Below are positions 3,050-61,145 of a stretch of DNA of 64,000 nt, one piece after another. The number at the start of each line of letters is the position of its first letter. The stretch's first letter is position 1. The notes under the pieces are model-generated. The model saw only the letters and a program-made list of their open reading frames with translations. It made no database searches and had not been told where the DNA came from. This DNA comes from Mobula birostris (taxonomy: Eukaryota). The stretch is taken from positions 17,075,144 through 17,139,143 of the forward strand of contig NC_092380.1 of assembly GCF_030028105.1 (NCBI RefSeq). The letters run 5' to 3'. The translations under genes and the position numbers were made by a program.

Positions 3050-6000
3050 TTTCTTCAGAGGCATCGCAGCTCGTGATTGTGAGTGTCTGCTGGTGTGTGG
3101 GAAGGGTACAAGCTTCAGATAGTAGATGAGTGACCACCAGGAGTAGTAAGGGGAGTAATCATTTGGTGTAGGCTTCCCATCAGTGGATACTGCTGGGGAG
3201 AGGGGTGACCTGTCAGGGCTGTGAGGCTCAACAGGGAAGGGTAAAGTCAGGTAGAACGCTAGGGAAAGGAGGTTCTGTGGCTGGGAAAGAGACCGGGATG
3301 ATGTGTTCCCTCCTAGATGATAGGATCAAGAATGGCTGCAGAATGTTCTCAAGAGGGATGGTGAGTAGCCAGAGTTTGTGGTGCACATTGACACTGGTGA
3401 TGTGGACGGAAAGGGGGAAAAGGTTCTGTGCAGTGAGTATAAGGAGTTAGAGAAGAGGCTGAAGTACAGGAATGTGAAGGTAGTAGTCCTGGATTACTCT
3501 CAGTATCATGTGCTAGTCAGGGCAGGAACAGAATGATAGCACAGGTGAAGGAGTAGCTGAGGAACTGGTGCAGGGGGCAAGGTTTCAGATTTCTGGATCA
3601 TTGGGATCTCCTCTGGGGGAGATGTGACCTGTACAAAAAAGGACGGGTTACACCTGAACCCGAGGAGGACCCATATCTTTGTGGGCAGTTTTGCTAGCGA
3701 TGTTGGGGAAGGCTTAAACTAACTTGTGCAGTGGGGCGGGAACCAGAGAGAGGGCAGTTTATATACAAATCAATGCATTGTGTAGTGAGACTGTGAGGAA
3801 GGATGGGCATTGGGGCAAAATAGAAAACGGTGATGAATACAGGACTGGAGGTGCTGTACTTGAACGCGTGCAGTATCTGGAATAAAGTAGATGGTCTTGT
3901 AGCGTAGTTAGAGACCGGCAGGTATGATGTGGGCATCTCTGAGTTGTGGCTGAAAGATCGTAACTGATAGCTTAACATCAAATCCTTAGGAAGTGGTGAC
4001 ATAAGAACGGAAGGTGTAGAATTCCTCTGGGTAAGAGTTAAGAAACTGCAAGGGTAAGAAAACCGATGGAAGTTGTATATTCTGAACACTAACCAGGATG
4101 TAGGCTATAAATCACAACAGGAGATTGAAGAGGTAATATTATGAGTCACGAGAGATTTCAATATGCAGGTAGATCTGGCAAATTAGATTGGTGCTGGATC
4201 TCAAAAGAATTTGTAGAAGGCCTATTATACAACTTTTTAGAGCAGTTTGTGGTTGAGCCCACTAGGGGAAAGGCAATTCTGGATTTGATGTAGTGTAATG
4301 AACTATATTTGATTAGGGAGCTTAAGGTAAAGGAACCCTTAAGGACGCAATAGATAGGATTTACTGTGCAGTTTGAGAGAGGGAAGCTAATGTATTAAAG
4401 TGATGTAAAGGAATTACAGAGGCATGAAAGAGAAGCTGGCCAAAGTTGATTTGAAGGGGACGCTATTAGGGATGATGGCAGAACAGCAATGGCTGAAGTT
4501 TCTGGGGGCAATTCAGAAGGCGCAGGATAGATACATCTCAAACGTGAAGTATTCTAAAGGGAGGATGAGATAACAGTGGCTTGACAAGGGAAGTCAAAGC
4601 ATAAAAGCAAAAGAGAGCATATAATATAGAAAAATTAGTGGGAAGATGGATGATTGGGAAGCTTCTTAAAAATCAACAGAATGCAACTAGCCATGTGAGA
4701 AAAGGTGAAATATGAAAGTAAGCTTGCCAATAATTTTAAAAGATACATAATTTTTTCCAGATACATAGTATAAAAGAGAGGTAAGTGGATATTATGACAC
4801 TGGAGAGGTAGTAATGGGGCACAAAGAAAGGGCAGACAAACTTTATAAGTATTTTGAGCTGGTTTACACTGAGTGTAGTTGCTATTACTAGGGAGAAGGT
4901 GCTTGGAAGCTGAAAGGTCTGAAGACAGATAGGTCAGATGGACTGCAACTCAAGGTTCTAAAAGAGGTAGCTGATAATATTGTGGAGGCATTAGTAATTT
5001 TCCAAGAATCTAGATTCTGGAATGGTTCTGGAGAATTGGAAAATTGAAACTGGCACTCCAATCTTTAAGAAGAAAGGAAATAATATATCAATTAGCCTGA
5101 CTTCAGTAGTTGGGAAGATATTGGGGACCATTATTAAGGAGGGGGTTTTGGGGTACTTTGAGACTTGTGTTAAAATAGGTCAAAGTTAGCATGACAAACA
5201 TGAGAAAATCTGCAGGTGCTGGAAATCTAAGCAACACATAAAATGCTGGAGGAACGCTGGAGGTCAGGCAGCATCGATGGAAAAGAGTAAACAGTTGGCA
5301 TTTTGGGCTGAGGCTTTTTATCAGGACACAGCATAGTTTCCTTGGGGAAAATCTGTTGAAATTCTTTGAGGAAATATTAGGCAGGATAGAGAAAGAGTCA
5401 GTGGATGTCATTTATTTGGATTTCCAGAAGACCTTTGACAAGGTGCCGCACATGAGGTTGCTTAAAAAGATCAGAGCCCATGGTATTACAGGAAAGATAC
5501 TAGCATGAATCAAAGATTGTCTCCTGCCAGTCAGCCAACGTGGTCTTTTCTGGTTGACTGTGGGTAACAAGTAGCGTTCTGGGTTGGTATTGGGATCGCT
5601 TCTTTTCATGTTATATGTCAATTATAAATAAAAAAAAATTAATGATTAGGATGATGGAATTTATGACCGTGGATGACACAAAGATGGAGGGGCAGGCAGT
5701 AAGGAGTCTGCTGAAGGTTTTGGATAGACTGGGAGAATAGGCAAAAATGTGGCAGATGGAATATAGTGTAGGGAAGTGGAATGGTCATGTTCTTCGGTAG
5801 AAGGGATAAAAATGTAGACTTTTTTTAAATCGGGAGTAATTTCAAAAATCAAAGGTACAAAAGGACTTGGGAGTCTTCGTGTGGGATTCTTTAAAAGGTT
5901 AACTTGTAGGTTGAGTCGGTGGTAAAGGAGGCAAATGCAATGTTAGCATTCAATTCGAAGGGTTAGAATACAAGACCAAGGGTGTAGTGCTGAGGCTTTA

Positions 6001-6520
6001 TAAGGCATTGGTCAGACCACACTTGGAGTATTGTGAGCTGTTTACCTGAGAAAACTGCTGGCATTGGAGAGGGTCCAGAGCAGATTCTGGGAATGATAGG
6101 GTAAATGTATGCAGAGCATTTGATGGCTCTGGGCCTGCACTTGCTGGAATTTAAGAAGAATGGCGTGTTAGGAATTCTTATTGAAACCCGTTGAATATTG
6201 AAAGGCCAAGATAGAGTGGATCTGCAGAGAATGTTTCCTTTAGTGGGTGAGTCTATGGACCAGAGGGACACAGCCTCAGAATAGAGAGATGTCTATTTAG
6301 AACAGAGATGAGAAATATCTTTAGCCAGAGAGCAATGAATCAGGAATTCATTGCCACAGACTGTTGTAGGGGCCAAGTCATTGAGTATATTTCAAGTGGA
6401 GGTTGATAGGTTCTTGATTAGTCAGGACATCAAAGGTTATGGGAGAAGACAAGAGAATGGAGTTGAGAGGAATGATGGAATGGCAGAGCAGACCCAATCA
6501 CTTAATTCTCCTGTGTTTTG
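3050..6520 (+). mobile_element. Degenerate CR1 LINE (ORF1 esterase remnant plus ORF2 endonuclease/RT remnants)
   Basis: ORF1-like DLYK..DGLHLNPR near 3625-3665. ORF2 motifs YLDFQKTFDKVPH (~5412-5450) and LYKALVRPHLEYC (~6000-6035). Many stops and frameshifts; boundaries approximate. Confidence 0.85.
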
Positions 6521-7735
6521 TATTCTGGAAAGGGTTAATTAGTCTGCGTGAAAATGGAGATACCTCGCTCTCCCTTATTACGGAGAGAGAGAGCCTGTGT
6601 TATGTCGAATGCCGGGTGAACACTGTAGTCTCTGGGGTGACTGCAAGTCTGTGTCTTTGCTGTTCCCTTGCTCGCGCCTGAGTGCTCGGTGGCGGTACAG
6701 AAGCTTTTTTTTGCCGGTGGGGGGAGGGGGGATTGTTGCTCACTGCCGCTTACGCGCGGGAGGGGACCTTGGGGTTCTAACATTTAACTGTTGCCTATTC
6801 TTGGGGCACTCTGTTTTCGTGGATGGTTGGGAAGAAAAAGCATTTCGAGATGTATATTGTATACATTACTCTGACATTAAATTGTACCTTTTGTGAGGTA
6901 CTGTGCTGCTACTGAAATATATTTCTTTGCCCACGTACTGTTCCCATTAACCCTTCCTGCTCCACATTGGCATTGGTTTATTATTGTTACATGTGCTGAG
7001 ATAGTGAAAAGCTTATCTTGTGGACTATTCGTACAGATCACGATGCAGTGGGGTAGAAGAAGGTAAAACAATAACAATCAAGTGTACAGGCCACAGTGAA
7101 AGTGCAGTGCAGTAAAGCAAGTGCAAGATTATAACGAGGTTGATTGTGAGGTCGAGAGCCCATCTTATTGTACAAGAGATCCATTCAATTGAGAGTCTGA
7201 TAACAGCAGCATAGAATCTGTCCTTGATCCTGGTGTTACGTGCTTTCGGGCATTTGTATCTTCTGCTGGATGGGAGAAGAGAGAATGTCCAGGTTGGTTG
7301 GTTTCTCAATTATGCTGACTGCTTTACTGAGGCGGAAAGAAACATAGACAGAGTCCATGAAGGTTTCTATGATGTATACTAAGCAGGTGATGGCCATTCT
7401 GGTATTGAACCCTCTATCTCCTGCTGTTCTTGCAGCCCTTGGAAGAACTGCCAGGTGCCCATGCACAGTCTGCCCCTTTCAGTTCTGGAGTACCACTCTG
7501 CTTCTCTAGAATCTCTGCTTTCTATATTTGTACCATTCCATTCTAGAATCTTCTGTTTTGAAAGCAAACAGTGTGTACTGACTTGGATGAAGGCAGCTGT
7601 GAGTGCCAGCTGGCTCCCATTGGCACCTTTGGGTGGTGTGTACAGCGGCTGAGTGTGGGCACAAGGGGAAGGGGGCAGGCGGGACTCGGTGGAACCAGAG
7701 CAGAGGCTGCCCCCGGCGTGGTGGGATGGGGCAAG

Positions 7736-8022
7736 ATGCTGGAGCAGCTTCAGAAGATCGACCAGCTAGGCCTAGCAGTGGAGGAGGCGTTTTATTCATG
7801 GACTGTCAGGAGCTGTGAGAGGCTGAGGGCCATTCCCTCTGTCCGGCTGCTGTTGAAGTGTGGCTGCGGCTTGTTGGCCTTCCTGGGGAGGGTGCTGTGC
7901 TTCAGGACGCTGGTGGCTTACTGGGGCTGGGCAACCAACTGGCTCAACGAATGGGTGGCAGAGTTTGAAGCCATAGCACAACTGGATCTGAAAATGCCGC
8001 TGGGAGTCCTGGAGGTGAACAG
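7736..8022 (+). CDS. Uncharacterised 3-exon gene, exon 1 (start codon provisional)
   Basis: aagATG at 7736, open GC-rich frame MLEQLQKIDQLG...VLEVN, ending AG|gtaac (phase 2). Confidence 0.7.
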
Positions 8023-8849
8023 GTAACGGACAAAAGGGCAGGGCGAGGTTTTATGGGTCAAAGAGCCGATTGCCCAGACCAAGGCAGAGGTGCCTTCTTT
8101 CACGCAAAGTTCCTGCAGCGCTACTTGTGAGAAGGCCGGGAGTCCCAGACCCTCGACCCACAGCACCAAAACAAGCTGGCTTCTTTTTATAACCCCACTG
8201 TTGGTAGGAAGTTTGCTCTCTTTCCCTCTAACTGAGAGGAACTTTAAAAAAAGTCATTTTTTAATGTAGTCAAAAATGCCAACTGAAAAATGGCAGCGAC
8301 ACAGAGATTACTATAAGCTTGGTCGGGGGAAGAGGGAGGGAGATTCCTCACAAGGTGGAACTGGGGCCTTATAAGGGTCGAGGGATAGCTCAGTGAGGCG
8401 AGAAATAGAGAAGAGTTACTGGGGAGGATTGTTGACTGACCCGGTTACAGAGAAGTGGAAAAGGGTATCAAAGAGTCACAGGGTGAATGGAAAGATAAGG
8501 AAAAATAAATCAGCCATGATTGAATGGTCATGCATACTCGTTGGACTGAATGGCCTAATTCTGCTCCTAAGAGCAGTGGGCTGTTGGTAAGTTAGTGGGG
8601 TGACGTTGGAGAAGGGCCAGGTGATGCTACAAGGCCAGTGTTGTATTAGGGAGAGTGGGTGGGATGCTGGAGGTGCTTGGATTAGAGCCAAAATGTTATG
8701 AGGATATATCTACCACCCCCTCTTCCCCAAGCCCTTCGCCCCTCCTGCTGTCCCCACTCCTCTGTAGCTCCTCTCCTCCCCAATCCAACCCCCTCCTTCC
8801 TCACCGTCCTCTGTGCCTCCCACCGCTCAGCCCTCCGCTCTGTGTTTAG

Positions 8850-9017
8850 GAAAAGGTATAGCTACTATCAGAACCTGCAGAATCAGATGCTGCCACTTAA
8901 CTGGGACCCGAGCACCCACCTGAGGCAGGATCTAGCCGCCGCCATGACCCTCAGGAAGTACCGCAATCATCTCCTCGACGTGCTGGAGTGGGCCAACCAG
9001 TCTGCAGACAAACAGAG
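8850..9017 (+). CDS. Uncharacterised 3-exon gene, exon 2
   Basis: Long pyrimidine tract, tttag|G acceptor, AG|gtac donor, phase 2-2, 168 nt: KRYSYYQNLQNQMLPLNWD...WANQSADKQR. Confidence 0.75.
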
Positions 9018-9304
9018 GTACACAGTGTCTGGCTCGCTGCTGGGGCAGTTATAAAGCGATCATCCTTGCTATTGTGGTGAGGCATTCATCACAAACCACC
9101 ACCCCACCCCACCCCCTGTCACCTACTGCCACAGCAGGATACAGGAGCGGAGACCCTCACGTCCAGCTGGTGGGCAAAGACAAAGCACTCCCAGCTCTGT
9201 GTGGGGGTCAGTGAAACCCAGGATGAGCTGGGGCTGTCTGAGTCCTCTCAGTGACCCAAGGCTCTTGTCCCCTAACCCTTGACCCAGGCTCATGTTATAC
9301 CTAA

Positions 9305-9815
9305 GCAACACACACACACAATGCTGGAGGAACTCAGCAGGCCGGGCAGCGTCGATGGAAAAGGGTAAATGGTTGACGTTTCGGGCCGAGACCTTTCATC
9401 AGGACTGGGGGAGCAAAAGATGAGAGGTCAGAGCAAGAAGGTGGGGGGAGGGGAGGAAGAAGCACAAGGTAGTAGGTGACAGGTGAAACCATGGGAGGAG
9501 GAAGGGTGAAGTAAAGAGCTGGGAAGTTGATTGGTGAGAGAGATACAGGGCTGGAGAAGGGGGAATCTGATAGGAGAGGACTGAAGGCCATGGAAGAAGG
9601 AAAAGTGGGGGAGGAGCACCAGAGGGAGACAATGGACAGGCAAGGAGATAAGGTGAGAGAGGGAAAGGGGAATGGGAACAGTGAAGTGGGGGAGGGGGGG
9701 GATTTACCAGAAATTTGAGAAATCGATGTTCATGCCATCGGGTTTGAGGCTACCCAGACAGAATATAAGGTGGTGTTCCTCCAACCTGAGTGTGGACTCA
9801 TTGCGACAATAGAGA
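9305..9815 (-). mobile_element. Penelope-like element 3' fragment with hammerhead-like motif
   Basis: Reverse complement gives the end of the GIY-YIG ORF (..RLEEHHLIFCLGSLKPDGMNIDFSNF), a pyrimidine-rich UTR and CTGATGA..GAAACGTC at 9371-9406. Confidence 0.8.
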
Positions 9816-9893
9816 CACGATCAGATTAAACACTATTCTGACTCCTACCCATATGCTGTTAATAGCTGTGTATGTTGACCTCTGAGTGTGAGT

Positions 9894-10604: not shown

Positions 10605-10902
10605 CCTTTTGTCGCACCTCCAAGATTCTTATAAATAATAAATAAAAGCATTCAAAGAAAGATAAGTTGACAATTTGTTTCAATAGCCCAGTGGTTTCTT
10701 AGGCTGCAGACAAAACGGGTTTTGGGGAGTTATCCCTGTGCAGGCCTTGTTGGAAATGGTATTTCAGTCAAAAAGATAAATAAAAATGTCACACGGCGAC
10801 AATTGTTAAAAGTTATGTTTGCGGAATGAAGGTTTCATATAACATTCAGATGTGGCACCAAATAGATGCACTGCCCTGGGAAGAGATGTTCACATTATCT
10901 GC

Positions 10903-11284
10903 AACACTCACAACATGCTGGAGGAACATGCCGTGGAAACGATCAGTTGACGTTTCGGGCCGGAACCCTGCGTCAGGACTGTAGGGGGAAGGGGCAGAGG
11001 CCCTATAAAGAAGGTGGGGGGAGGGTGGGAAGGAGAAGGCTGGTAGGTTCCAGGTGAAAAACCAGTAAGGGGAAAGATAAAGGGGTTGGGGAGGGGAAGC
11101 AGGGAGGGGATAGGCAGGAAAGGTGAAGAAGGAATAGGAGAAAACACAATGGGTAGTAGAAGGAGGTGGAACCATGAGGGAAGTGATAGGCAGCTGGGGG
11201 AGGGGGCAGAGTGAAATAGAGATAGGGGAAGGGAGGGGGAGGGAATTACCGGAAGTTGGAGAATTCAATGTTCATACAAAGGGG
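10903..11284 (-). mobile_element. Penelope-like element 3' fragment with hammerhead-like motif
   Basis: Minus strand reads MNIEFSNFR*, then the UTR and CTGACGC..GAAACGTC. Flanked by cacattatctgc/cacatcatctgc (12-bp TSD, 1 mismatch). Confidence 0.8.
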
Positions 11285-16708: not shown

Positions 16709-16844
16709 ATGATGGCGGCGGCCGGGCGCGCCGTTGCGGCGTCGGGGAAGGTGGTGAAGCCGCTCCTGTCCCGGGAGCAGAGCGAAGCCAAGCGGCGGGT
16801 GCGGGAGTTGTACCGGGCATGGTACCGAGAGGTGCCCAACACCG
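16709..16844 (+). CDS. NDUFA6: NDUFA6 (complex I B14, LYRM6) exon 1
   Basis: [45 protein letters not shown] with the LYR motif; G|gtaag donor (phase 1). Confidence 0.96.
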
Positions 16845-37360: not shown

Positions 37361-37420
37361 CCAAACCTAAACTGGCCATTACCTAAGTGGCATGTGAGAG
37401 CACTGGTAACTGGCTTCCAT

Positions 37421-46954: not shown

Positions 46955-47549
46955 TTCCTTGAAAAACTCTATAAGATTGGTTAGACACAAATTACCATGC
47001 ACAAAGCCATGTTTTTCACTATCTCTAATCAGTCCCTGTCTATCCAGATACTTATATATATCCTGTCCCTTAGAATACTTTCTCACTACTGCTGTCAAAT
47101 TCACTGGCCTATAATTTTCTGGCTTATTCTTAGAGCCTCTCTTAAACAATGGAACAACATTATCCATCCTCCAATCCTACGGTGTCTCACCCATGACTAG
47201 TGATGTTTTAAATATCTCTGCCAAAGCCCCTGCAATTTGTGCACTAGCCTTCTCCCCCCCCCCCCCATAAGGCCCGAGGGAGCACCTTGTCAGCTCCTGG
47301 GGATTTATCTATTATAATTTGCCTCAAGACAGCAAACACCTCCTCCTCTGTAATCTGTACAGGGTCCATGTCCCCGCTGCTGCATTGCCTCGCATCTATA
47401 GACAATGTGTCCGTCTCCTGAGTAAATACAGATGCAAAAAAAAAATTAGTTTTAAGATCTCCCCCATCTCTTTTGGCTCCATGCATAGATTACCAATCTG
47501 ATCTTCCGGAGGACCAATTTTGTCCTTTGCAATCCTTTTGTGCTTAATA

Positions 47550-48338
47550 CAGTCGGCCCTCCTTATCCGCGGGGGATTGGTTCTGGGATCCCTCACGGAT
47601 ACCAAAAAACCCGGATGCTCAAGTCCCTTATTCAACCTGCCCAGTGCGGTGGTCTTTAGGACCCAGCAGAACCCCGGACCTTATTTAACCAGTCTCGGTG
47701 CGGTGGATATTAGGACGGGGCGGCGGAGCTCTGAATCGGCAGTGTTTCTGTTCACGAAAATAATCACGATCACAATTGAAAATAAAGTGGAAATAATAAA
47801 GCGATCAGAAAGAGGTGAAACGCCATCGGTCATTGGAAAAGCGTTAGGCTACAGTCGGTCAACGATCGGAACAATTTTAATGGCACATGTGAAAGGCCCT
47901 GCCCGATGAAAGCTACAATTATTACTAAGCAACGCTGTGGTTTAATTATTGAAATACATTCGTGTCTTAAGTGTTTTATATGCATAGAAAGGTAAAATAT
48001 ATACTATATACTTAGGCAAACGTTTGACTAACTGATGCTAAATAATACCGGATGTACCTGTTCTGACTTAAAGACAGACTCAGGAACGGAACTCGTTCAG
48101 AACNNNNNNNNNNNNNNNNNNNNNNNNNNNNNNNNNNNNNNNNNNNNNNNNNNNNNNNNNNNNNNNNNNNNNNNNNNNNNNNNNNNNNNNNNNNNNNNNN
48201 NNNNNNNNNNNNNNNNNNNNNNNNNNNNNNNNNNNNNNGCTCAAACAACGAGTGCTGGAGACAAAACTTCCGGGTTTTCCTGATCCGCGGTTGATTGAAT
48301 CTGCGCATGCGGAACCCGCGGATAAGGAGGGCCAACTG
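47550..48338 (+). mobile_element. Tigger/pogo-derived internally deleted DNA transposon
   Basis: TA|CAGTCGGCCCTCCTTATCCGCGG ... CCGCGGATAAGGAGGGCCAACTG|TA. CENP-B/psq HTH remnant ITIENKVEIIKRSERGETPSVIGKALGYSRSTIGTIL. Confidence 0.9.
48104..48238. other. Assembly gap (135 N)
   Basis: Run of N. Confidence 0.99.
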
Positions 48339-48574: not shown

Positions 48575-49690
48575 CTAGGTACCGTATCCGATGCGGACTT
48601 TGGTGACCGTGGTTTTCCATACAGATCTATCCTTCGTTTTTTGGATGACGTCCATTTCCTCGATGTGTAGCCACCTGGCTAGGCTTTTGACGTACATAAG
48701 CCGAGGTCTTCCTCTAGGTTTGCTCCCCTCAATCTTTCCAGAGAGTATGAGTTTTTCTAGTTCATCTTTCCGCATGATGTATCCTAGGAACCTGAGTTGT
48801 CTTTCTCTTATTGTTGGTATGAGTGATCGAACTGCTTGGGCTCGTCTGAGAACTTCTTCATTTGATGTGTGTGTGGTCCGTGATATTTTTAACATTCTCC
48901 TGTAGAACCAAAATTCAGCTGCTTCTAGTCTCTTTTCCATTGCTGGAGAAATGGTCCAGTATTCACTTCCTTAAATCAGGATAGAATAAATGTAGCACTG
49001 CAGTATTCTGTTTTTAGTGTACGTGCTCATCTTTCTGTCTGCTAATATGGGCTTCATTTTTTGGAAAGCTTCTCTCACCATTGCTATTCTGTATTTGATA
49101 TCTGTGTTGCACCTGCCATTACTTGTTATTAGGCTGCCAAGATATTTGAATTTGTTGACTTGTTTGATGTTTGTATTTCTGATCTTGATCACACATTGTG
49201 GGATGTTTGTCTTTCTGGAGATGACCATGCTTTCTGTCGTCTTGGTGTTGATTGAGAGGCCTTTGCGATTACTTTCTGCTGCCACTATAGTGAGTAATTC
49301 TTGAAGTTTTGTTTCTGAGTCAGCTATTAGTACAATGTCATCAGCATATCTGATGTTATGTATATTATGGCCTCCAATTGCAAATTCTTTGATATCTTTG
49401 ATACTTCTCAAGATATTTTCACTCTACAGGTTGAATAAGTCTGGCGAAAAGACACAACCTTGCCTGACTCCTCTCATGATATTCACATACTCACTCACTT
49501 CTCCTTCTATTCTGATGGATGCTGTCTGGTCCCAGTATAAGTTTCTTAAGAAACATATATCTTTCCCATCCACGTCAAGATCTTGAAGCATTTCCAGAAG
49601 ATCTTGCTGTCTGACAGTGTCAAAAGCTTTTGTATAGTCAATGAAACATAGGCAGATGTCTTTTTGTACCAGATGGTTCATTCATAGATC
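48575..49690 (-). mobile_element. RTE-clade LINE, 3' part of RT
   Basis: CFIDYTKAFD, RGVRQGCVFSPDLFN, NIRYADD, FKYLGS and GKIEGSKPRGRPR motifs. Confidence 0.9.
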
Positions 49691-51559
49691 ATCTGTAGCA
49701 TGAAATTTACTTTGACCAGAACATATAAGCTCCGTACTCTCAAAATTTCACTTGAAGGCCTCCCACTTACCAAGTATACCTTTGCCAGAACACAGCCTGT
49801 CCCAATTCATACTCACCAGATTCTTTCTGATAACATCAAAATTGGCCTTTCTCCAATTTAGAATGCCAACCCATGGACCAGTCCAATCCTTTTCCAAAAT
49901 TACCTTGGAACTAACGACATTTTGATTACTAGGTGCAAAGTGTTCTCCTACACAAACTTCTACCACCTGCCCCGTCTCATTTCCTAATAGGAGATCTAGT
50001 ATTGCATTCTTTCTAGTTGGGACTTCTATACAGATTAAGGAAATTTTTCTGAATACATTCGACAAATTCTTTCCTATCCAGCTCTTTTACAGATTGGGAG
50101 TCCCAGTCATTATGTGGAAAGTTAAAATCACCTACTAACATAACCTATATTTCTTGCAACAGTCCGCGATCTCTCTACAAATTTGCTCCTCTAAATCCCG
50201 TGGACTGTTGGGTGGTCTATAATATAATCACATTAACGTGGTCATACCTTTCTTATTCCTCAGTTCTGCCCTTAAAGCCTCACTATTCAAGCTCTCTAGT
50301 CTGTCCTGACAGAACCCCGGAATGTTGAGCTGCCAGTCCTGCCCCTTCTGTAACCAAGTCTCACTAACGGCTACAATCGTTGTCATAACTCTACACGCTG
50401 ATCCATGCCCTAAGCTTGTCTGCCTTTCTTACATTGCATTGAAATATACAGAGCTCAGAATATCTGCTCAACTTTAGGTAGGCTTAACAACATCTTTCTC
50501 CACAACCAGTCCACTATCTGTTCTGGCGCTCTGTTCCCATCCTCCTGTAACTCTGATTTAAATGAGCCCCCCCCCCCCCCCCCCCAGTGCAGCAGTAGCA
50601 AACCTTCCAAATAGGATATTAATCCCCCCTCCAGTTCTGGTGCTAGTCATCCTTTCTGCACAGTTATCACCTTCCCTGAAAGAGACCTCAATGATCCAAA
50701 AATCTGAAGCCCTCCCTTCTGCACCAACTCATTATCCATGTGTTCAACTGTATAATCTTCCTATTTCTGGTCCCAGTGGCATGTGGCACAAGTAGCAAAG
50801 CTGAGATCACAACCCTGGTGGTCCTGTCCTTTAACTTAGCACCTAACTCCCTGAACTCACTTTCCAGGACCTACCACCCACCTTATTCAGGTCATTGGCA
50901 CGAGCGTGGACTGTGACCTCTGGCTGCTCTCCCTCCCACTGAAGAATGTTGTGGATCTCGATCCGAGGAATGGGTAAATGTACCTATCTGAGGAGTAGGA
51001 GTAGGGATATAGCCCAGTTTCATCTTCCTTCTTCCAGCAAGTAAGGCTATTTCCTTTTGGGTTGATTTTAGGAACTGGCGATCAGGAAGTACAATGGGCC
51101 GGATGGAAAGGATGGTGTGGGGAGGGGAACTCTGATTGCTTCCCAAAAAGTTTGAAATGCAACCTATAGTTTGGCTTTTTCTACCTGGCATTAGGGTTGA
51201 GGGCCTTTAATTACCTGCATTTATTTGCAGAGAATTCCAAAGTTTTGCTTCTTTTTTTTTGGAGAGGACAAACTCCTCTTCATTATCAATTGACCCCTTA
51301 TGCTCACTTACCAAGGTAGACATCCTCATAGCACCTACCCTGTGGATCACCATCCACTGCCCCTGTCTCCTAAGCCCTCCAGACGCAGGGTCCTGAATAT
51401 TTCGGTGTGATCATCGTCCATTCTTAAACTCTTCAGAGAGTGTACGCTCAATCGTTTCTTGTAACGCAGCTGTTTCATAACAGCAATCCTCCTCTATTTT
51501 GTACCTGAGATTTTGAGTGCTTTATGTGAGGTAAATGAGGAGAAACTATTTCACTAGCA

Positions 51560-52050
51560 GGACACACAAAAAAGCTGGAGCAACTCAGCAGGCCAGGCAG
51601 CATCTGTGGAAAAGAGTAAACAATCGACATTTCTGGCTGAGACCCTTCTTCAGGACTGGGAAAAAAAGAAGAGAAGTCAGAGTAAGAAGGTGGGGGGGGG
51701 GGAAGAGGAAGAAAAAGTCCAAGGTGGGAGGTGAAACTGGGAGAGGGGGAGGGGTGAAGTAAAGAGCTGGGAAGTTGATTGGTGAAAGAGATACAGGGCT
51801 GGAGAAGGGTGAGTCTGATAGGAGAGGACAGAAGACTGTGGAGAAATAAGGAAGGAGGAGGAGTACCAGATGAGGTGAGATAGGGAAACAGGAATGGGGA
51901 ATGGTGAAGTGGGGGATGGGGGCGCATTACCGGAAGATTGAGAAGTCAATGTTCATGCCATCAGGTTGGAGGATACCCAGACGGAATATAAAGAGTTGCT
52001 CCTCCAACCTGAGTGTGGCCTCATCGCGGCAGTAGAGGAGGCCATGGACT
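51560..52050 (-). mobile_element. Penelope-like element 3' fragment with hammerhead motif (51621-51658)
   Basis: End of GIY-YIG ORF plus CAGTC-CTGAAGA-agggtctcagcca-GAAA-T-GTC-GATTG. Confidence 0.78.
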
Positions 52051-52355
52051 GACAGTTAGTAATAAGTAGGGACTTATTTTGGACAGTTGATATATGAACC
52101 AGGGCCGAGCTGAGAAAGGTTTTGTGCAGGGAGGTGCGTTCTGAAGTGGGCTGTCTAAAAGAACATTGGGGGAGGAAAGATGCAATAAAAACTTCCAAAA
52201 GGAAATTGGATAGGGAAGATGGGAGATGAGTTGCAGGGACATAGGACTAGTTTACAAAGGTCCCCATCAGAGTTAGCTGAGGGACAGAGCTCAGTGCCTC
52301 TCTGCTACATCATTCTCTTTCTGTTAACCATACAGGTTGCTGAAGGCTGTGAGTG

Positions 52356-52507
52356 ATGGAGCTGCTGGTTTTCCCTCTTGTGCTGCTTGCCCATTTCGCT
52401 CTATCCCTGGACAATGGCCTCATGAGGACCCCTCCCATGGGCTGGCTGGCATGGGAACGGTTTCGCTGCAACATTGACTGTGCCACGGACCCCAAAGACT
52501 GCATCAG
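52356..52507 (+). CDS. NAGA: Alpha-N-acetylgalactosaminidase, first coding exon
   Basis: Signal peptide [17 protein letters not shown], then [25 protein letters not shown] (GH27 N-terminus). Acceptor tacag| at 52335, donor AG|gtgag, in-frame stops upstream of the ATG. Not in the ORF track. Confidence 0.96.
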
Positions 52508-53069
52508 GTGAGGCCAGTTACTCCCAGGCACTGAGACGTGTCACAGGAAATCTCAGTGAGGAGTTGAGTAGGATTCGCTGGATGAATGTGGAAATTCTTC
52601 ACCACTGAGGTTCATCACAAGGTCTTGTACACAGTCCCACTACCAGGAGAATAGATGCCTGTGGGGTCCTGGTGGATGGACAGTTCACTGAGGGTGCTGA
52701 CTGTAGTCAAGATCCCTTTGTTGGTGATGCCGACTGTTGCCAAACTCCCATCTCCAGGGAGGTGAGTGCTCACCAAGCTCTCCTGGTCTGGAGCACTGGA
52801 GCACTGACAGTCAGCCGCATCCTTACCTGCTGACATTCCCTTTCACAAAGGGACCTTTTTTTTGTGTGTGTGGATATTATCTCTCGCCAGGTTCCCGATG
52901 GTGGGTGGGTCCTTGGCTCTTCTCAGGGTCCTATTCCCAGTGGCATTGACTTGTGTTGGGGAATGGATTTTGTGACCTCAGAGCTTCTGAGGTCATGCTC
53001 TGATGAAACTTGGTAACTTAAGAAGAAAAGAGCTTCTGAAACAGAGGCAGGATTGGGCCATTTGAATCA

Positions 53070-53630
53070 TCATCATCAGGTGCCGTGCCCAGTTTGAGCT
53101 TTGACTGCCATGGCCCACACACTCCTGTTTCGGGTCAAGTAGATGAATTCCTTGGTATTCATTTCCAGTTCTCAGGCTGCTGTCTCCATCATCATTTGTC
53201 TTTGTCTTCCTCTTGCTTTCTTCCCTTCAATCTTTCCCATAATTACTGTGCATTCTAACTCCTCTTTCCTAATCACATGTCCAATGAAGTTACATTGCCT
53301 TTTCATGATCTCATACATTATTTCTCTTTTTGTGTTTGCTCTGTTCATGACATCCTCGTTAGATATTCGTTTCGTCCATGATATTCTTTGCATCCTCCTC
53401 AAAAACCACGTCTCTGCTGCTTCAGTTCGATTCCTCATGTTACTAGATATTGTCCAACATTCTGAGCCATGTAACATAACTGGATAAAGGTAACATTTCA
53501 GTACTCTGAGGCGGGTTGTCATGCCTAGTTTAGTATTGGTCAGTATATTCATTCTCGTAAAGGTGTCTTTTGCCATCTCTATTCTTCTTTTGATGGCCAT
53601 GTCGCACCTGCCATCTGATGTCACCCAGCA
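53070..53630 (-). mobile_element. RTE-clade LINE 3' fragment
   Basis: LRVLKCYLYPVMLHGSECWTI..WFLRRMQRISW..GKIEGKKARGRQR with a (TGA)n tail. Confidence 0.85.
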
Positions 53631-54897
53631 CCACTGTCCTGCACTGATCCTATATGTCTTTATTCCCTTAATACTCAAAAAACTTAGACCTGTGTTTTGA
53701 AAGTATTCAATGACTGAGCCACCGCAGCCCACTTTGTAAAGAATTCCTAAGACTCACCATCCTTACGGTAAGGTGGTTTCTTCCCATCTCAACTAAACCT
53801 TGACCCTGAATCTGACTTTCACACGGTGCCCAGTTGCCTCTTAATTACAGCTTAGATCAGGACAGCACACAAAGGAAATCTCTTATATAACGGCGTTGAG
53901 TTTCTCAAACAAATTTATTCAGACCCGATTACAGTGTATACTGGGGAGCTCTTCTAGTGAGAGTTCAATACTGATTCTTAAAAAAAAATTCCAACAATTT
54001 ATAGTATTTGTGTTACAATAGTTTCATACAGAATTTACAATCTCATCAGTAACCCACTTTAATTTGTGCTATTTGATCTTTGTTTCATTTCGTCAGGGGT
54101 TGTCACTTAACTGTTTGACAAATGGAAGTTCCTTTGCCAAACAGCAACTGTGCCTCCCTCCCTCCCCCCCCCCCACAAGGTGCTGTGATTTATGGTCTTG
54201 CCCTTTTTGCCCTTTTATGGTGTCTTGGCTTGTCTCCTTTAATTAAGATATATTCCAGCCTCCCATTTATTTATCTCTGATCCAGCCAGCTATGCCTTTT
54301 AATCAAAACATTTCCCTGCTCTTAATAGTAGCCTGTTTCTGTTCCACTGCAACACGTACAAAATGCTGGAGGAACTCAACAGGCCAGGCAGCATTTTTGG
54401 ACAATCAGCGTTTTGGGCCAAGACATTTCATTAGAGTTATTGGCCTTTTTTCCCATCAATCCATTCTAATTTGTATGGCATTTAAGTTGACCTTATTTCA
54501 AATGTTCCCAATGTTCTTGATTCCTAGAGATTCCTTGCTAAAACATGAACCTCAATTATAACCATCCAAATGGGGTTGTATCTATCCTATCAAGTTCTAT
54601 AAGAACTGTGCACCTTTCAGAATCAGGTTTATACAGTATATCATGAAATTTGTTGTTTTGCAGCAGCAGGGCAGTGCAATACATTAAAAAAAGATCACCT
54701 ACTATATCAATGATATCACCTTTCATTCTTCATCTCTCCAGAGAATAGGCTTCGTTTGTTTACTCTCTCCTTATGGGACTCATCTCCCTCCCCTCCTCCA
54801 TCCCAGGAATCAATCTGTAGAACCTTTGTTGAACTCCGTCTAAGACCAGATCGGTACACAGTATTCTAAGTTTTAACCCTGTGCCCTCTGTGAACAG

Positions 54898-55072
54898 TGA
54901 GAGCTTGTTCATGGACATGGCCGATCGGTTGGCAGAGGACGGCTGGAAGGAGCTTGGCTACGAGTACGTGAACATCGATGATTGCTGGGCGGCAAAGAAG
55001 AGGGACTCTCAGGGACGGCTGGTTCCTGATCCTGATCGATTCCCCAGTGGAATTAAAGCTTTGGCACAATAC
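54898..55072 (+). CDS. NAGA: NAGA second coding exon
   Basis: aacag| and TAC|gtgag. [58 protein letters not shown] carries the GH27 IDDCW motif. Confidence 0.97.
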
Positions 55073-55989
55073 GTGAGTCTATATGTTAACTCCTTCTTTC
55101 TATCCTGATTCTCCAATGCCGTATGTGGCAATGAGTATACCGGTCAAACCCTGAAGAGGTGAGGGTTTGTGCAGGGGGGTGTTGCAAGAGGGTAAGCATA
55201 GTGTTGCAGTTGTGCTTGTTCGTGTAACTACTGGCCCCATGACTGCTTTGTGTGGTGAATGAGTCAGAATGCGGTGGGAATTGGTCGCAGTGTTGATTAC
55301 CTTCTGCAGTGTCAGGTTCTGGTTTCTGCAGAAGTAGGATTCCTTCTGCATTTGTTGCTGTATTATGGGCAGTACTGGCTAGAACTTCTTTTGTTGCTCT
55401 TAACCAGACAGATAAAAGGCAACCAAATCGGTACTTGGAAGTCACGTAGAGGATAATCTTGAGTAAGTGTGGCAGATTTTTTTCTCCCTGACAATTGTTA
55501 GTGAACCAGAGGAGATTTTGCAACAGTCTGGTGTCTTCAAGACCACTGCTACTGAGACTAGAATATCAAGTTCAAATTGTATATTCGCCACTTTCTGTTA
55601 CGCCCCTGGCATTTAGGGCAGTGATGAAGGTCCTCCATCACTGGTGGTGTTCAGAGCTTCTTTCATCATGTCAGTAGCTTTCTCCTGGTTTTCACTCCTG
55701 GCTGTCATGCAAGTCCCAGTTGTGGACTCAGGAACACTGTAACAGTCAGATGTTGGACTGAGAACATTGCTGTTTCTGTAACAATTTTGTTTGACCAGTC
55801 AGGGCTGTTGGTCCTGAGCTGAACCCCAGAAACTGGAGATCTGGGGGCTACTCTGAGTCTGTCCTCTACCCTTTGACCTGTTTGGCATGGGTGACCCTAC
55901 CAAGAGCCAAAGTGTAAAGCCCTGACTCCAGCCAACATAGCTCTCTGGGTCATTGAGGCACGCAAGCCTCCAAACTACAACAAGGTTGG

Positions 55990-57682
55990 GGAAGCTTTAA
56001 AATACCAACAGAAGGCAATTAAAAAAAGTCATTAAGAAGGTAAAAATGGAATACAGAAGTCAGTTACCCAAAAATATTAAAGAGGATAGCAAATGTTTCT
56101 TTAGATACATGAAGTGTAAAAGGAAGGCAAGAATGGATACTGACTGCTGGAAAATGATGCTGGTGAAGTAGTAATGGGGGACAAGGAAATGGCAGATAAA
56201 CTGAATAAGTATTTTGCGTCAGTCTTCACTGCGGAAGACACTAGCAGTATGGTGGAAGTTCCAGGTGTCAGGGGCATGATGTGTGTGAAGTTACCATTAC
56301 TAGAGAGAAGGTTCTTGGGAAACTGAAGGGTCTGAAGGAGCTTAAGTCACATGGACCAGATGGTGTACACCCCATGGTTCTGGAAGGGGTGGTTGAAGGA
56401 TTGTGGAGGCATTAGTAGTGATCTTTCAAGAATCACTAGATTCTGGAATGGTTCCTGAAGACTGAAAAATTGCAAATGTTACTCCACTTTTCAAGAAGGG
56501 AGAGAGGCAGTAGAAAGAAAATTATAGGTAGTTAGTCTGACCTCAGTGGTTGAGGAGATGTTGGAGTTGATTGTTAAGAGTGTGGTGTCGGTGTACTTGG
56601 GGGCACATGATAAAATAAGCCATAGTTAGCATGGTTTCCTCAGGGGAAAATCGTGCCTGACAATTGGAATTCTTTGAAGAAATAACAACAAGCAGGATAG
56701 ACAAAGGAGAATCGGTTGATGTTGTATATTTGGATTTTCAGAAGGCCTTTGACAAAGTACCACACGTGGGGTTGCTTAACAAGTTACGAGCTCATGGTAT
56801 TACAGAAAAGATTCTAGCATGGATAAAGTAGTGGCTTACTGGCAGGAGGCAAAGAGTGGGAATAAAGGGAGCCTTTTCTGGTTGGCTGCCAGTGACTGCT
56901 GGTGTTCCACAGGGGTCTGTGTTGGGACCGATTCTTTTTATGTTATGTGTCAATGATTTGGATGTTAGAATGGTGGCTTTGTTGTAATGTTTGCAGATGA
57001 TATGAAGATAGGTGGATGGGCAGGTAGTTTTGAGGAAGTAGAGGGGCTACAGAAGGACCTAGATTAGGAGAAGGGGCAAACAAGTGGCAGATGGAATACA
57101 GTGTCAGAAAGTGTATGGTCATGTATATTGGTAGAAGAAATGAATGGGTTGACTATTTTCTAAATGGAGAGAAAATATGAAAATCTGAGGCACGGAGGGA
57201 CTTGGGAGTTCTTGTGCAGGATTCCCTATAGGTTAATGTGCAGGTTGAGTCTGTGGTGAGGATGGCAGATACGATGTTAACATTCCTTTCAAGAGGACTA
57301 GAATATAAAAGCAAGGATGTAATGTTGAGATTTCATAAAGCACTGGTGAGGCCTCACTTAGAGTATTGTGAGCAGTTTTGAGCCCCTTATCTTAGAAAGG
57401 ATGTGCTGAAACTGGAGAGGGTTCAAAGGAGCTTCATGAACATGATTCCAGGATTGAATGATTTGTCATATGAAGAGTGTTTGATGGGACTGGGCTTGTA
57501 TTCACTGGAATTCAGAAGAATGAGGGGTGACCTAATTGAAACCTATCGAATGGTGAAAGGCCTTGATAGAGTGGATGTGGAGAAGATGTTTCCTATGGTG
57601 GCAGAGTCTAAGACCAGAGGGCACAGTCTCAGAATAGAGAGGCGTTCTTTTAGAACGGAGATAAGAAATTTCTTTAGCCAGA
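55990..57682 (+). mobile_element. Degenerate CR1 LINE (RT region) in a NAGA intron
   Basis: YLDFQKAFDKVPH, GVPQGSVLGP, FADD and ALVRPHLEYC motifs, with stops. Confidence 0.88.
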
Positions 57683-58915
57683 CAAATCAAAGGGTAGAGG
57701 ACAGTCTAAAGGTGGCCACTGGTCCTCCAGATTTGGGGGTTCAGCTCAGGGCTAACAACATTGACTGGCAAAACAAAATTGTTACGGAAACGGCAATGAA
57801 GAATCCTTGTAGATTTGAATGTGACGGTATTCCTGAGTTTCCACCCAGGACTTGCATGACCAAGAGTAGTGAAAACTGAGGAAAGTGGAAGCTGCAACTA
57901 CAGTGAAGAAATGGAGATGGAGGACTTCATTGCTGCCCTAAACATCAGTGTCATAATGGACAGTAAGTAAGTCTGAGAGCCAGCACTGAGTTCATGGGCA
58001 ACTGGCTGCCTCCTGTGATGTAAAGAATATGAATCCTGGAATTTGTTGCCTAAAGGTAGTGGAAAGGATAAATCAGAACTTCGAAAGGAAATTGGAAAGA
58101 CGAAGGATAATTTGCAGAGCCATGGAGAAATGAGACTGACAGGATTGCTCTTCCAAGGCATAAACCCAATAGGCCAAGTGACTAATTTGATTCTATGAGA
58201 TTCTCTTCATCTTGTTGTTTTGCTGATTTTATGTTGTCAGTTCAATACAATATACTTAAGTAAGGACCTCCCCCCCCCCCCCGCCTCCACAACATACTCA
58301 ACTATAATAAGGTCATCCCCAACCACTCTAGTCCAGATGCCACTCATCCCTGGTTTCATTTTGAGGTACCCTCTCCAAGTGTTTGACATTCTTCCTGGAG
58401 TCTGTTGCCAGACATTAGTATTAGAAGTTATTCAGAGAGGATTTATTGAATTAATACTTGCTTGAAAAGGGCAGGTGGGCTTATGAGGAGAGGATGGAAC
58501 AGGCTGGGCATGTATCTGCAGGATTTTATAAAGAGTGGACTAGATTGAAATGTGTAAGGGTCCTGAGGGGTGGGACTGGAGAGGATGTTGCATCTTGTGG
58601 ACCATCTGAAATCATGGGTGGTTGTTTGAAAATAAATCAGCAATTTAGAGTCACATAGAGGTGTAGCATGGACACAGGCCTTTTAGCCCACAGAGTCTGC
58701 ACCAACAAAAGACAGGACATTTGGTATTGAGTGTGGAAGGTTGTGATCTGCCTGGTTGGAAGACAAAGTGTGTCTCATGAGCTGCTGTCTAGCCTTATTG
58801 GAATAGCAGAGGAGGTTGAAGACCTGTGAAGTGTTTCCAACATTTTCTGTTTTTAATTTTAGATTTCCGCAGTTTTTAGATGTCTTAAAATAAATCAACA
58901 TTTGTCTTGTTAAAG

Positions 58916-59093
58916 GTCCATTCTAAAGGTCTGAAACTTGGCATTTACGCGGACCTAGGCAAGTACACGTGTGGTGGCTACCCAGGCACCACAGTGGACA
59001 AGGTTGAGTTGGATGCCCGTACCTTTGCCTCCTGGGGAGTGGACATGCTGAAGCTGGACGGCTGCTACTCAAACTCTTCCGACAAGGCTGTGG
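58916..59093 (+). CDS. NAGA: NAGA third coding exon (catalytic nucleophile)
   Basis: aaag| and G|gtaag. [25 protein letters not shown]...[13 protein letters not shown], with the nucleophile Asp in KLDG. Confidence 0.97.
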
Positions 59094-59718
59094 GTAAGGC
59101 TTGGAGCAGCTGGCTGGCTGCTTGCTGCTTCGTTTGGTGAAAAGAATGAATATTCAAAGCTATAGAATTCACTGAATTTCCATCCTGACCTCAAAGAGGC
59201 CATTGATTCAATCAACTGAGGAATTAAAGGTTCAAAGGTTCTTTTTATTAAAGTATGTATACAGAATACAACTCTGAGATGTGTCTTCTCCAGATAGCCA
59301 CAGAATACAGAAAACCACAGACGTAGTTGAAAGAAAGACATCAATCCCCCCCCGCATGAAAAGAAAAAGAAATAAAAACACCTCCAACCCCTCCCTTGCA
59401 CAAGAACTAACAGATCACCCAGACCCCCAGCCAGCCAATTGGCGTCAAGAAGGAATGGGTGAGAACATGAATAAAAAACATTGAACTGAAAGAGGCCAAT
59501 GTGAACTACAGTACCATCCATAAATCTCAGAATTTTGATAACACCTCTGAGAGCATCGGGACCCAACGGCTTCTCTGAGGGAAGTGACATGGCCCAGCAA
59601 GACTGTTTAGTTTGGAAGTTGTATTTCCCAACTGGATGTATGTGATTATAAAACTGGTGATTGACAGTATGACTAGAACTTGTACTGGCTCTTTGGAAAA
59701 CAAAACAATAGAACCCAT

Positions 59719-60531
59719 GCCCTTACACTTCCTCCCTTACCACCATTGAGGGCCCCAGACAGTCCTTCCAGGTAAGGCGACACTTCACCTGTGAGTCGGC
59801 TGGGGTGATATACTGTGTCCGGTGCTCCCGATGTGGCCTTCTATATATTAACGAGACCCAGCGCAGACTGGGAGATCATTTCGCTGAACACCTACGCTCT
59901 GTCTGCCAGAGAAAGCAGGATCTCCCAGTGGCCACACATTTTAATTCCACGTCCCATTCCCATTCTGATATGTCTATCCACGGCCTCTACTGTAAAGATG
60001 AAGCCACACTCAGGTTGGAGGAACAACACCTTATATTCCGTCTGGGTAGCCTCCAGCCTGATGGCATGAACATTGACTTCTCAAACTTTCGCTAGTGCCC
60101 CACCTCCCCCTGGTACCCCATCTGTTATTTATTTATTTATATACACACATTCTTTCTCTCTTTCTTTCCTTTTTCTCCCTCTGTCCCTCTGACTATACCC
60201 CTTGCCCATCCTCTGGGTTTCCCCCCCTCCCCCTTTTCCTTCTCCCTGGGCCTCCTGTCCCATGATCCTCTCATATCCCTTTAGCCAATCACCTGTCCAG
60301 CTCTTGGCTCCATCCCTCCCCCTCCTGTCTTCTCCTATCATTTTGGATCTCTCCCTCCCCCTCCCACTTTCAAATCTCTTACTAGCTCTTCTTTCATTTA
60401 GTCCTGACGAAGGGTCTCGGCCCAAAACGTCGACTGTACCTCTTCCTAGAGATGCTACCTGGCCTGCTGCATTCACCAGGAACTTTGATGTGTGTTGCTT
60501 GAATTTCCAGCATCTGCAGATTTCCTCGAGT
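59719..60531 (+). mobile_element. Penelope-like element 3' fragment (GIY-YIG plus terminal repeat)
   Basis: IYCVRCSRCGLLYINETQRRLGDHF...DGMNIDFSNFR. Hammerhead motif at 60400-60435 with GAAA>AAAA. Flanking gaacccat repeat. Confidence 0.88.
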
Positions 60532-60694
60532 GAACCCATTTTTCTATTCTTTCCCTGCAAATATTTTCCTCTAAGTATTTGCCGATACCGTTTTGAAAGT
60601 TCAAGTCAAGTTCAGTCAAGTTTAATGTCATGTGCACGATGAAGAACTTGCAGTATCATCACTGGCACAAAGGTCCGAACAACACACAATATAA

Positions 60695-61145
60695 CAAACA
60701 CGAGAAAGTCTGCAGATGCTGGAAATCCAGAGCAACACACACAAAATGCTGGAGGAACTCAGCAGGTCAGGCAGCATCTATGGAAAAGAGTAAAGAATCA
60801 ACGTTTCGGGCCGAGACCCTTCTTCAGGACTGAGAAGGGAGGGGGGAAGATGGAAGATGCCTCAGTGAAAAGGTGGGGGGAGGGGAAAGAGGCTAGCTGG
60901 AAGGTGATAGGTGAGGATAGGTGGGTGGGAAAGGTCAAAGGCTGGCGAAGAAAGAATTTGGTAGGAGAGGAGAGTGGATAATAAGAGAAAGGGAAGGAGG
61001 AGGAGACCTGACAGGATGTAATAGACAGGTGAGAAGTGAAAGGTCAGAGTGGGAATTAGAGGAAGGGGGGCTTGAATTTGTTCACCAGAAGGAGAAATTG
61101 ATATTAATACCATCAGATTGGAGGTTACCCAGATGAAGTATAAGG
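60695..61145 (-). mobile_element. Penelope-like element 3' fragment with intact hammerhead core (60796-60831)
   Basis: Minus strand AGTC-CTGAAGA-agggtctcggccc-GAAA-C-GTT-GATT. Confidence 0.78.

Follow-up and report, generated by a model that had tools for sequence, protein, structure and literature searches.

Minimal hammerhead motifs of a Neptune-like Penelope-like element in Mobula birostris, with rare joined copies that may record cleavage

The motif that recurs in the window, meaning the whole 64-kb stretch of Mobula birostris DNA analysed here, is, judged from its sequence, the minimal type-I hammerhead already published for Penelope-like elements (PLEs), in this case in a Neptune-like family. 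It is probably a passenger of Neptune-like PLE insertions, most copies being lone decaying relics that likely do not cut. The type of motif has already been described; rare joined copies whose ends fall at the predicted cut may record cutting in living cells. This would be an addition to the explanation by relics and uncut templates and not a replacement for it. PLEs without hammerheads spread well, and the literature covered on PLE hammerheads shows no in vivo cleavage. The genome offers several hundred thousand copies in lineages with differing cores, so that the places where RNAs began and ended can be read from insertion ends.

Identity of the motif

The motif is 38 bases long. Its pattern, with up to 3 mismatches, gave nine matches in the window compared with none in 100 shuffles, and a profile made from the window copies gave 21. 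Inspection of the sequence found 12 of 12 copies listed in an earlier note on this DNA, 11 of them plus a decayed one at 5295-5327 on the minus strand, with positions correct to within 1-2 bases. Further remnants, absent from that note, were found by the profile search of the window at 54350-54434, 43223-43298, 42893-42940, 18517-18606, 30945-30995 and 31080-31146.

The CUGANGA and GAAA boxes with a UH cut triplet are present in type-I order, helix III is absent and positions 15.2-16.2 are palindromic, as for dimer pairing. Both stems, I and II, and the palindromic ACGU agree with their description in the earlier note. GAAACGU is the majority form in all subfamilies but the CpG-decayed oldest, and an unpaired A is bulged between positions 9 and 10.1 in 98 of 100 copies. 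In stems I and II 85% of cells are paired, against 14-45% when the stems are slid. The alignment of the 12 window copies held no stem pair changed on both sides; the differences among these copies are mostly CpG decay, and the subfamilies are too alike for compensatory changes to show. An Rfam search of the window returned no hammerhead family at E values up to 5, which is uninformative for such a minimal form.

Self-alignment, domain search and long copies place the motif in the pseudo-LTR of a PLE. Minimal hammerheads are known from pseudo-LTRs of metazoan PLEs, including Neptune, Poseidon and Xena of fish (Cervera and De la Pena 2014, PMC4209133). As far as the text of that paper describes them, they share with the present motif the type-I layout, the lack of loop 3, the palindromic 15.2-16.2, the extra base between 9 and 10.1, a stem I of 4-5 bp, an origin mostly as single copies from truncated elements, and close opposite-strand pairs. 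They differ in that stem II has only 4 bp here and that the youngest subfamily has G.U at 10.1-11.1. The earlier assignment to the dimer-type minimal hammerheads of PLE terminal repeats thus stands, given this architecture and a carrier with reverse transcriptase (RT) and GIY-YIG domains.

Carrier element and copies in the window

A near full-length PLE of subfamily A occupies 18640-22238 (+), with RVT_1 at 20220-21485 and GIY-YIG at 21290-21808. It begins with a 20-nt inverted 5' piece, followed by the 5' region from about +20 past the cut site and the ORF, and ends with the pseudo-LTR, the motif at 22106-22141 (+; predicted cut 22137/22138) and a tail to +101. Its ORF is frameshifted and the long copy is broken, but the order of RT and C-terminal GIY-YIG in one ORF, the hallmark of EN+ PLEs, is recognisable. 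A CX4CxxC linker lies ahead of the GIY-YIG; a CX2-5CxxC linker at this place is a hallmark of Neptune, also found in Nematis. The canonical EN+ Neptune and Nematis elements, as presented in the consulted part of Craig et al. (2021, 10.1101/2021.04.23.441226), share this domain order and linker as well as partial tandems, an inverted 5'-truncated copy and a one-sided tail. Partial tandems, an inverted 5' copy and a tail of 30-40 bp, which are traits of EN+ PLEs, were found here too. The linker and the known vertebrate distribution make the carrier appear Neptune-like rather than Nematis-like.

The element lies in sense orientation in intron 1 of an NDUFA6-like gene, for which exons were located at about 16709-16844 and 26905-27021, and sits between the halves of a 13-bp target duplication at 18627 and 22235. 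Target duplication and self-alignment identify 17225-18132 (+) as a separate 5'-truncated subfamily-A copy with an inverted tail piece. It stops at the short tail end (about +65), has a 15-bp target duplication at 17210 and 18133, and holds the motif 18034-18069 (+), likewise sense in intron 1. The idea that the 18034 and 22106 motifs are the two pseudo-LTRs of one element is ruled out by the separate target duplications.

A single head-to-head insertion of subfamily C at 37421-37870 contains the motifs 37480-37517 (-) and 37738-37775 (+), which are two arms of one insertion because they share one 13-bp target duplication, at 37408 and 37871. Self-alignment further delimited a subfamily-C mini-insert of motif and tail only (40626-40757, -, starting at about -29), a subfamily-C copy with a deleted tail (10902-11173, -, motif 10944-10981), an older-lineage copy (51556-52054, -, motif 51621-51658) and a decayed mini-insert starting at about -30 (5191-5327, -, motif 5295-5327). 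The rearranged, decayed copy at 44114-44275 (-, motif 44243-44273) also starts at about -30. Another older-lineage copy (9304-9814, -, motif 9371-9406) lies between the MCM5-like and NDUFA6-like genes. In one intron of an NAGA-like gene, a truncated subfamily-A copy is sense (59713-60531, +, motif 60400-60435) and an older-lineage copy is antisense (60696-60914, -, motif 60796-60831). Four of the 12 window copies are thus clearly intronic, a figure that covers the window only and to that extent supports the earlier remark that much of the motif load is intronic.

Most window copies carry damage at bases needed for catalysis or pairing, and only 18034, 37480 and 60796 pass a structural descriptor. 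The best preserved, 37480-37517 (-), has every core base and a GUU triplet, and its cut is predicted after 37485, as the earlier note had expected. Its monomer is predicted to fold into a rod in which the core is paired to the cut site. The 60796 copy also has GUU, with an intact core, A7 and a 4-bp stem I; the 18034 copy has an intact core, but G.U at 10.1-11.1 and U15.2. The remaining damage includes G10.1A and a broken stem I (9371), A9C and G1.1A (10944), C11.1A and U15.2 (51621), and G12A (37738, 44243 and 60400), which predicts that the 37738 copy is dead. With A13U (GUAA), the 22106 copy's own catalytic half is predicted to be dead as well. The 40723 copy retains little of the 5' strand in stem I, since its insert begins at about -29. 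The window contains no intact same-strand motif pair.

Abundance in the genome

In 80 samples of 10 kb (800 kb) the profile gave 157 matches, and none in reversed sequence. This corresponds to about one per 5-6 kb genome-wide and confirms the density of about one per 6 kb first estimated from the window. Exact matches to a 32-nt pattern numbered 11,184 (reversed control 0). The descriptor was passed by 13 of the 157 matches, and extrapolation to the genome gives about 790,000 remnants and about 65,000 copies that would pass the descriptor, far above the 2,000-9,000 given in the text of PMC4209133.

From the density, a very large load of self-cleaving RNA had been proposed, which these data show to be overstated. 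That the dispersed copies form a large active load acting on host pre-mRNAs is very improbable, even though the extrapolated 65,000 copies, the intact look of 26 of 47 young copies and the presence of the motif in thousands of contigs from sequencing runs guessed to be RNA (the contigs show no ends and are neutral on expression or cutting) would speak for it. So would 18034 and 22106, which lie sense in one intron at a distance of 4 kb: in a hybrid dimer, the catalytic half of the first might in principle cleave the second. Against such a load, only a small part of the sampled matches passes the descriptor, and the single same-strand pair among the 13 intact ones comes from two separate insertions with 4.5 kb between them. 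According to the text of PMC4209133, monomers show no cleavage in vitro and dimers little, and the anole motif, in the account available of PMC11167929, cuts only with its protein. The predicted rod fold would hide the cut site, inserted cores are without significant protection by selection, and most copies appear to be reverse-transcribed from uncut RNA. As an active ribozyme load on host RNA, the motif matters little.

Copy ends and RNA template

The motif lies 65-101 bases ahead of the 3' end of the copies, which in 36 sampled copies is bimodal, with favoured ends at +65-71 and +95-101 from the cut. Among 99 copies chosen on the tail only, all of which lie in the first 6.3 Mb of a single contig, 33 start at the front edge of the motif (-32 to -19) and one at +1 to +3. 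Of 30 long copies chosen on the ORF start, 22 extend across the cut site, leaving the motif unbroken, and none begins at the cut. Mini-inserts start at -31 and end at the tail ends of the element, each with its own target duplication. The base before -31 is G in 58 copies and A in 42, with 7 of 11 in a further set, so that the cap signal is weak.

These ends suggest the following cycle. The element RNA would start at the front edge of the motif from an internal promoter, with a capped A at -31 or -35. The element protein would bind the tail and begin reverse transcription within it, as it does in vitro for anole Poseidon. Copying up to the RNA 5' end would give the mini-inserts of 100-135 bp, and copying of read-through tandem RNA the long partial tandems; if both are copied from such RNA, the usual template would be uncut RNA. 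The monomer would form an inactive rod and could be cut only with a partner RNA paired via ACGU, or with the protein, and the inserted copies would then decay through CpG loss. Two points weigh against the uncut template: a circular, re-ligated template would likewise leave intact motifs in the long copies, and the head-to-tail repeats whose ends fall at the cut suggest cleavage of part of the RNA. In the parts of Frangieh et al. (2024, PMC11167929) consulted, the Anolis Poseidon element PAc similarly starts RT internally at two sites downstream of the ribozyme, about 30-40 nt from one another, which gives the tail, and has uncut RNA as the main template. Unlike PAc, the present element has a Neptune-type linker, and its ORF begins after the tail and not inside the ribozyme.

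Many copies are just 100-135 bp long and a 38-nt tandem satellite of a core variant, A6C, exists, both of which could point to a separate, non-autonomous retrozyme family that replicates through small circles. Non-LTR retrozymes (Li et al. 2026, 10.64898/2026.07.22.740005) are, by the text available, short non-coding hammerhead pieces related to, and derived from, PLE pseudo-LTRs. They are, however, tandem units bounded by cut sites, whereas the copies here are single truncated insertions from RNA start to tail. The mini-inserts start at -31 and not at the cut, only rare short motif arrays occur, and cut-to-cut tandem arrays of 150-400-nt units were absent from the window and the sampled matches. 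We regard a retrozyme family as the least probable of the readings.

A branch-point-like TACTAAC and an AG lie just upstream of the motif in 13 of 47 copies. A 3' splice site at this place, as in Drosophila, is unsupported: the truncated copies checked adjoin target duplications and have no shared exon.

Joints at the predicted cut site

Head-to-tail motif repeats gave 82 junction matches genome-wide, reduced to 74 events by merging arrays and dropping one mixed locus. In 41 of the 74 the joint falls at position 0 or, with one additional G after it, at -1 (p=2.5e-15 compared with uniformly spread ends). Such joints may be a fossil trace of cleavage in vivo. On this reading the ribozyme would cut some element RNAs in vivo, and an RT leaving a capped 5' end would jump onto the 32-nt 5' product; we consider this a serious possibility, while leaning somewhat against it. 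In thirty loci checked, each insertion is independent and none is trailed by an old copy, and nested insertion as a source of joints was absent from them. Control searches of flanking positions gave scattered ends. Nine events read GT/G/AGT, without microhomology, which fits a cap-derived base against an RNA end at C17.

In the A6C lineage, none of 27 events falls clearly at the cut site and one does so ambiguously, but a canonical-core sister lineage likewise has none in 13, which confounds the A6C contrast. The A6C lineage had looked like a strong natural knock-out (41/74 vs 1/27, p=7e-7; p=0.016-0.08 compared with older canonical copies), a control that the sister lineage undoes. The joint class moreover clusters in the youngest subfamily (36/51 vs 5/23). 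About 22 events with GTC/AGT joints could have arisen without a cut by self-priming, in which GACG is added and then anneals to CGUC; this route requires C7, and C7 marks the lineages that have the cut-site joint class. Among cap-G joints the non-catalytic site +6/+7 is equally used (about 12 vs 9-10). Also, while the joints here are in DNA, the anole RNA-seq, as described in the text of PMC11167929, has no ends at the cut. Because the sister lineage is without joints and the microhomology route covers about half of them, cleavage is suggested rather than demonstrated.

If the joints are cleavage products, they would be in vivo evidence and would pinpoint the RNA to assay. The fuller account, in which the genome records in vivo cleavage through joints in two lineages and another lineage lost cutting, drifted to A6C and still amplified, is one we put forward with greater reserve and rather doubt. 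On that account, cleavage would be real yet dispensable, and a brake on short RNAs would be a likelier role than a replication step. On PLE ribozymes of cartilaginous fish, template jumping and cyclic-phosphate ends, the literature covered, mostly outside subscription papers, reports neither an A6C PLE lineage nor cut-site joints.

Core conservation and core variants

The earlier note had expected core positions to be more conserved than flanks across subfamilies. This holds against the upstream flank (motif 68-97%, upstream 56-80%) but not against the downstream tail, which is similar (69-95%), and in two lineages core changes have become fixed. Excluding CpG sites, young copies have 7 of 430 core and 70 of 2194 flank changes (p=0.086) and a second set 2 of 423 and 28 of 2021 (p=0.15); both tests lean to a more conserved core, at low power.

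The motif might be kept mainly as a promoter and protein-binding signal, with catalysis vestigial in this PLE family, which we consider unlikely but worth weighing. Copies start at the first base of the motif in a YYAGTC context, which we take to be initiator-like. The tail is as conserved as the motif and there are no compensatory pairs. A6C is fixed in one lineage and a C at position 9 in another, and G.U at 10.1-11.1 is found in 38 of 43 young copies of the youngest subfamily, with G-C in older subfamilies. An internal promoter is known in Drosophila Penelope (PMC2377424), and in vitro insertion is unblocked by core mutants in the results available from PMC11167929. The full core is nevertheless kept in most subfamilies here and, by the text of PMC4209133, across phyla, and joints fall at the exact scissile bond.

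Both lineages with a fixed core change amplified nonetheless, and the one with A6C, a natural core mutant, reached tens of thousands of copies. Both are absent from the main text of PMC4209133, supplements aside. A natural A6C hammerhead of phage Bcep176 (PMC3088659, PMC7151607, as far as their text goes) shares the CUGCNGA core; the variant here differs in belonging to a high-copy animal retrotransposon lineage with a predicted minimal dimer-type fold. A tree of the flanks groups the C6 copies (0 of 500 shuffles as low), a single origin not being demonstrated by the tree, and a linked upstream marker splits C6 from A6 (11 of 14 C6 copies, 0 of 7 A6 copies, p=0.001).

Motif copies and their carriers in the window

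The earlier note had identified minimal hammerhead ribozymes of Penelope-like elements (PLEs), and this identification holds. All of its listed motif copies, named here by their start positions, were located, and its pattern with up to 3 mismatches gave 9 matches in the window vs 0 in 100 shuffles. A profile search of the window found 21 motif remnants. The motif has a type-I hammerhead layout lacking helix III and consists of a 5-bp stem I, CUGANGA, a bulged A, a 4-bp stem II, GAAA, CG and UH. Only copies 18034, 37480 and 60796 pass the structural descriptor, and the remaining window copies are damaged by G12A, A13U, A9C, G10.1A or broken stems. The covariation proposed as a check did not appear, with two-sided changes in 0 stem pairs of the aligned window copies. 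The Rfam search of the window returned no matching hammerhead family; a weak mir-2 match at 18639-18699, below threshold, is a fold-back at the 5' end of a PLE insertion. The predicted monomer fold is a rod, in which GACG of the core is paired with the predicted cleavage site (the cut), and its z-scores are not significant.

At 18640-22238 lies a long, broken element with coding sequence for RVT_1 and GIY-YIG; it carries a CX4CxxC linker, a type described as typical of Neptune/Nematis elements in the available text of 10.1101/2021.04.23.441226. Target duplications mark 17225-18132 as a separate insertion and motifs 37480 and 37738 as the two arms of a single insertion. At 22083-22105 (subfamily A), a branch-point-like sequence, a pyrimidine tract and AG lie immediately 5' of the motif. 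Further mobile-element debris, with a Tc1-like transposase HTH, LINE RT fragments and a CENP-B-type HTH, is found at 379-768, 33672-34334, 47502-47906, 48974-49681 and 53172-53753.

Host exons of four genes are present in the window: at 1395-2488 on the + strand (Pfam: MCM5_C), which we take to be an MCM5-like 3' end; three at 16709-31436 on the + strand (Pfam: Complex1_LYR), presumably an NDUFA6-like gene; at 42425-43573 on the - strand (Pfam: DDDD), assumed to be SMDT1-like; and at 52355-63991 on the + strand (Pfam: Melibiase_2), presumably NAGA-like. Copies 18034 and 22106 lie in the same intron, both sense, and 60400 (sense) and 60796 (antisense) lie together in another, so that 4 of 12 window copies are clearly intronic and the expectation that much of the family would be intronic stands only in part. 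If 18034 and 22106 formed a hybrid dimer, 18034 might supply the catalytic half acting at the 22106 cut site, probably weakly.

Genome-wide abundance and decay

In the 4.0-Gb genome of this vertebrate host, exact matching of a tight 32-nt pattern finds 11,184 sites. For the profile, 80 sampled 10-kb stretches drawn from 12 large contigs gave 157 matches (0 in reversed sequence); 109 matches span the motif and 13 pass the structural descriptor, which extrapolates to ~790,000 remnants and ~65,000 intact-looking motifs in the genome. Among these 13 there is one same-strand pair, made of two separate insertions. With 13 of 157 sampled matches and 3 window copies passing, the implied load of active ribozymes is not upheld. 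The motif, its location, its single-copy scatter and weak dimer activity are already published (PMC4209133, available part), as are the tail, the 3' part of the element after the cut, and the uncut template for Poseidon (PMC11167929, in the text at hand). The Mobula birostris family is a very high-copy addition to these Penelope hammerheads.

Two decay tests used young copies chosen without the motif and non-CpG sites only. The core differed at 7/430 vs 70/2194 in the tail (p=0.086) in the first, and at 2/423 vs 28/2021 (p=0.15) in the second. Core protection in inserted young copies is not significant; it leans toward protection, at low power. When the majority sequences of five subfamilies are compared, similarity is 68-97% in the motif and lower, 56-80%, in the upstream flank, as the earlier note anticipated, while the tail, at 69-95%, is about as alike as the motif.

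Lineages with core variants

Non-A bases at position 6 show an excess of C, with 48 of the first 100 matches listed vs 16/100 at position 9 (p=2e-6). In one flank context with 821 matches, the first 100 listed carry 57 C, 32 A, 10 T and 1 G at this position (hand count). C6 is linked to an upstream marker and occurs in 10 of 100 motif-complete sampled matches, so A6C copies would number tens of thousands. By sequence, loci L151-L180 and this flank context point to a PLE lineage with a fixed A6C core, of which literature searches found no report. Colinear endonuclease coding sequence lies upstream in 5/18 C6 loci (E<1e-30). A6C strongly reduces Mg2+ cleavage in the hammerheads assayed, according to the accessible portions of PMC7151607 and PMC3088659. 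A 38-nt-unit tandem satellite is built of the A6C motif (L369-L373; G000:C5, about 153.985 Mb).

An older lineage (L181-L210; window 18517-18606) has C at position 9 in 30/56 matches (hand count), a stem II ending in U-A rather than U.G, and a different tail. The youngest subfamily has G.U at 10.1-11.1.

Copy ends and head-to-tail joints

The 3' ends of 36 copies form two clusters, +65-71 and +95-101 from the cut, resembling the pair of internal RT start sites reported for the anole element (PMC11167929, as far as its text was available). Among long copies chosen on the ORF start (n=30), 22 extend across the cut and keep the whole motif, 8 begin downstream and 0 begin at the cut. Tail-chosen copies (101 minus 2 duplicates) start at -32..-19 in 33/99, with 20 at -32..-29, and at +1..+3 in 1/99. 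Target duplications directly adjoin several of the front-edge-start copies, or have an extra G between, and a hand count of the first 100 matches listed gives 58 G and 42 A for the base preceding -31. The element RNA would have a capped start at the first base of the motif, which agrees with the available part of PMC2377424, where Drosophila Penelope is described as having an internal promoter; the template for copying would be uncut RNA.

Head-to-tail motif repeats (joints) gave 82 matches genome-wide, which we read and classed by hand into 75 events, or 74 with one mixed locus left out. In 41/74 the joint ends at the cut (at 0, or at -1 plus G), the others mostly at +6 to +8 or +3, and the 30 joint loci inspected are independent insertions. 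Flanking control searches are spread out, with 11-12/36 at the cut in one and ends at ~+16 to +22 in the other. The cut-site class is concentrated in the youngest subfamily (36/51 vs 5/23). Among 27 events of the A6C lineage, after dropping 5 inverted-arm matches and 2 private mutants and merging one array, 0 clear and 1 ambiguous joints are at the cut; its canonical sister lineage has 0/13 events there, so that the A6C control does not discriminate. Joints of older canonical copies gave 0/19 matches at the cut.

GTC/AGT joints could also arise by a two-step microhomology route requiring C7, which is a mark of the lineages having such joints, but this route does not cover nine GT/G/AGT events (one array merged and 4 of 14 matches discarded as false). 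At +6/+7, cap-G joints occur as often as GT/G/AGT does at the cut. Ribozyme cleavage in vivo is tentatively suggested, and we regard it as possible, if somewhat on the doubtful side.

Arrays of 3-6 short motif units (-31..+7, -35..-1, -31..0) were also observed within single insertions (L345-L348, L391, L428), consistent with repeated template jumps.
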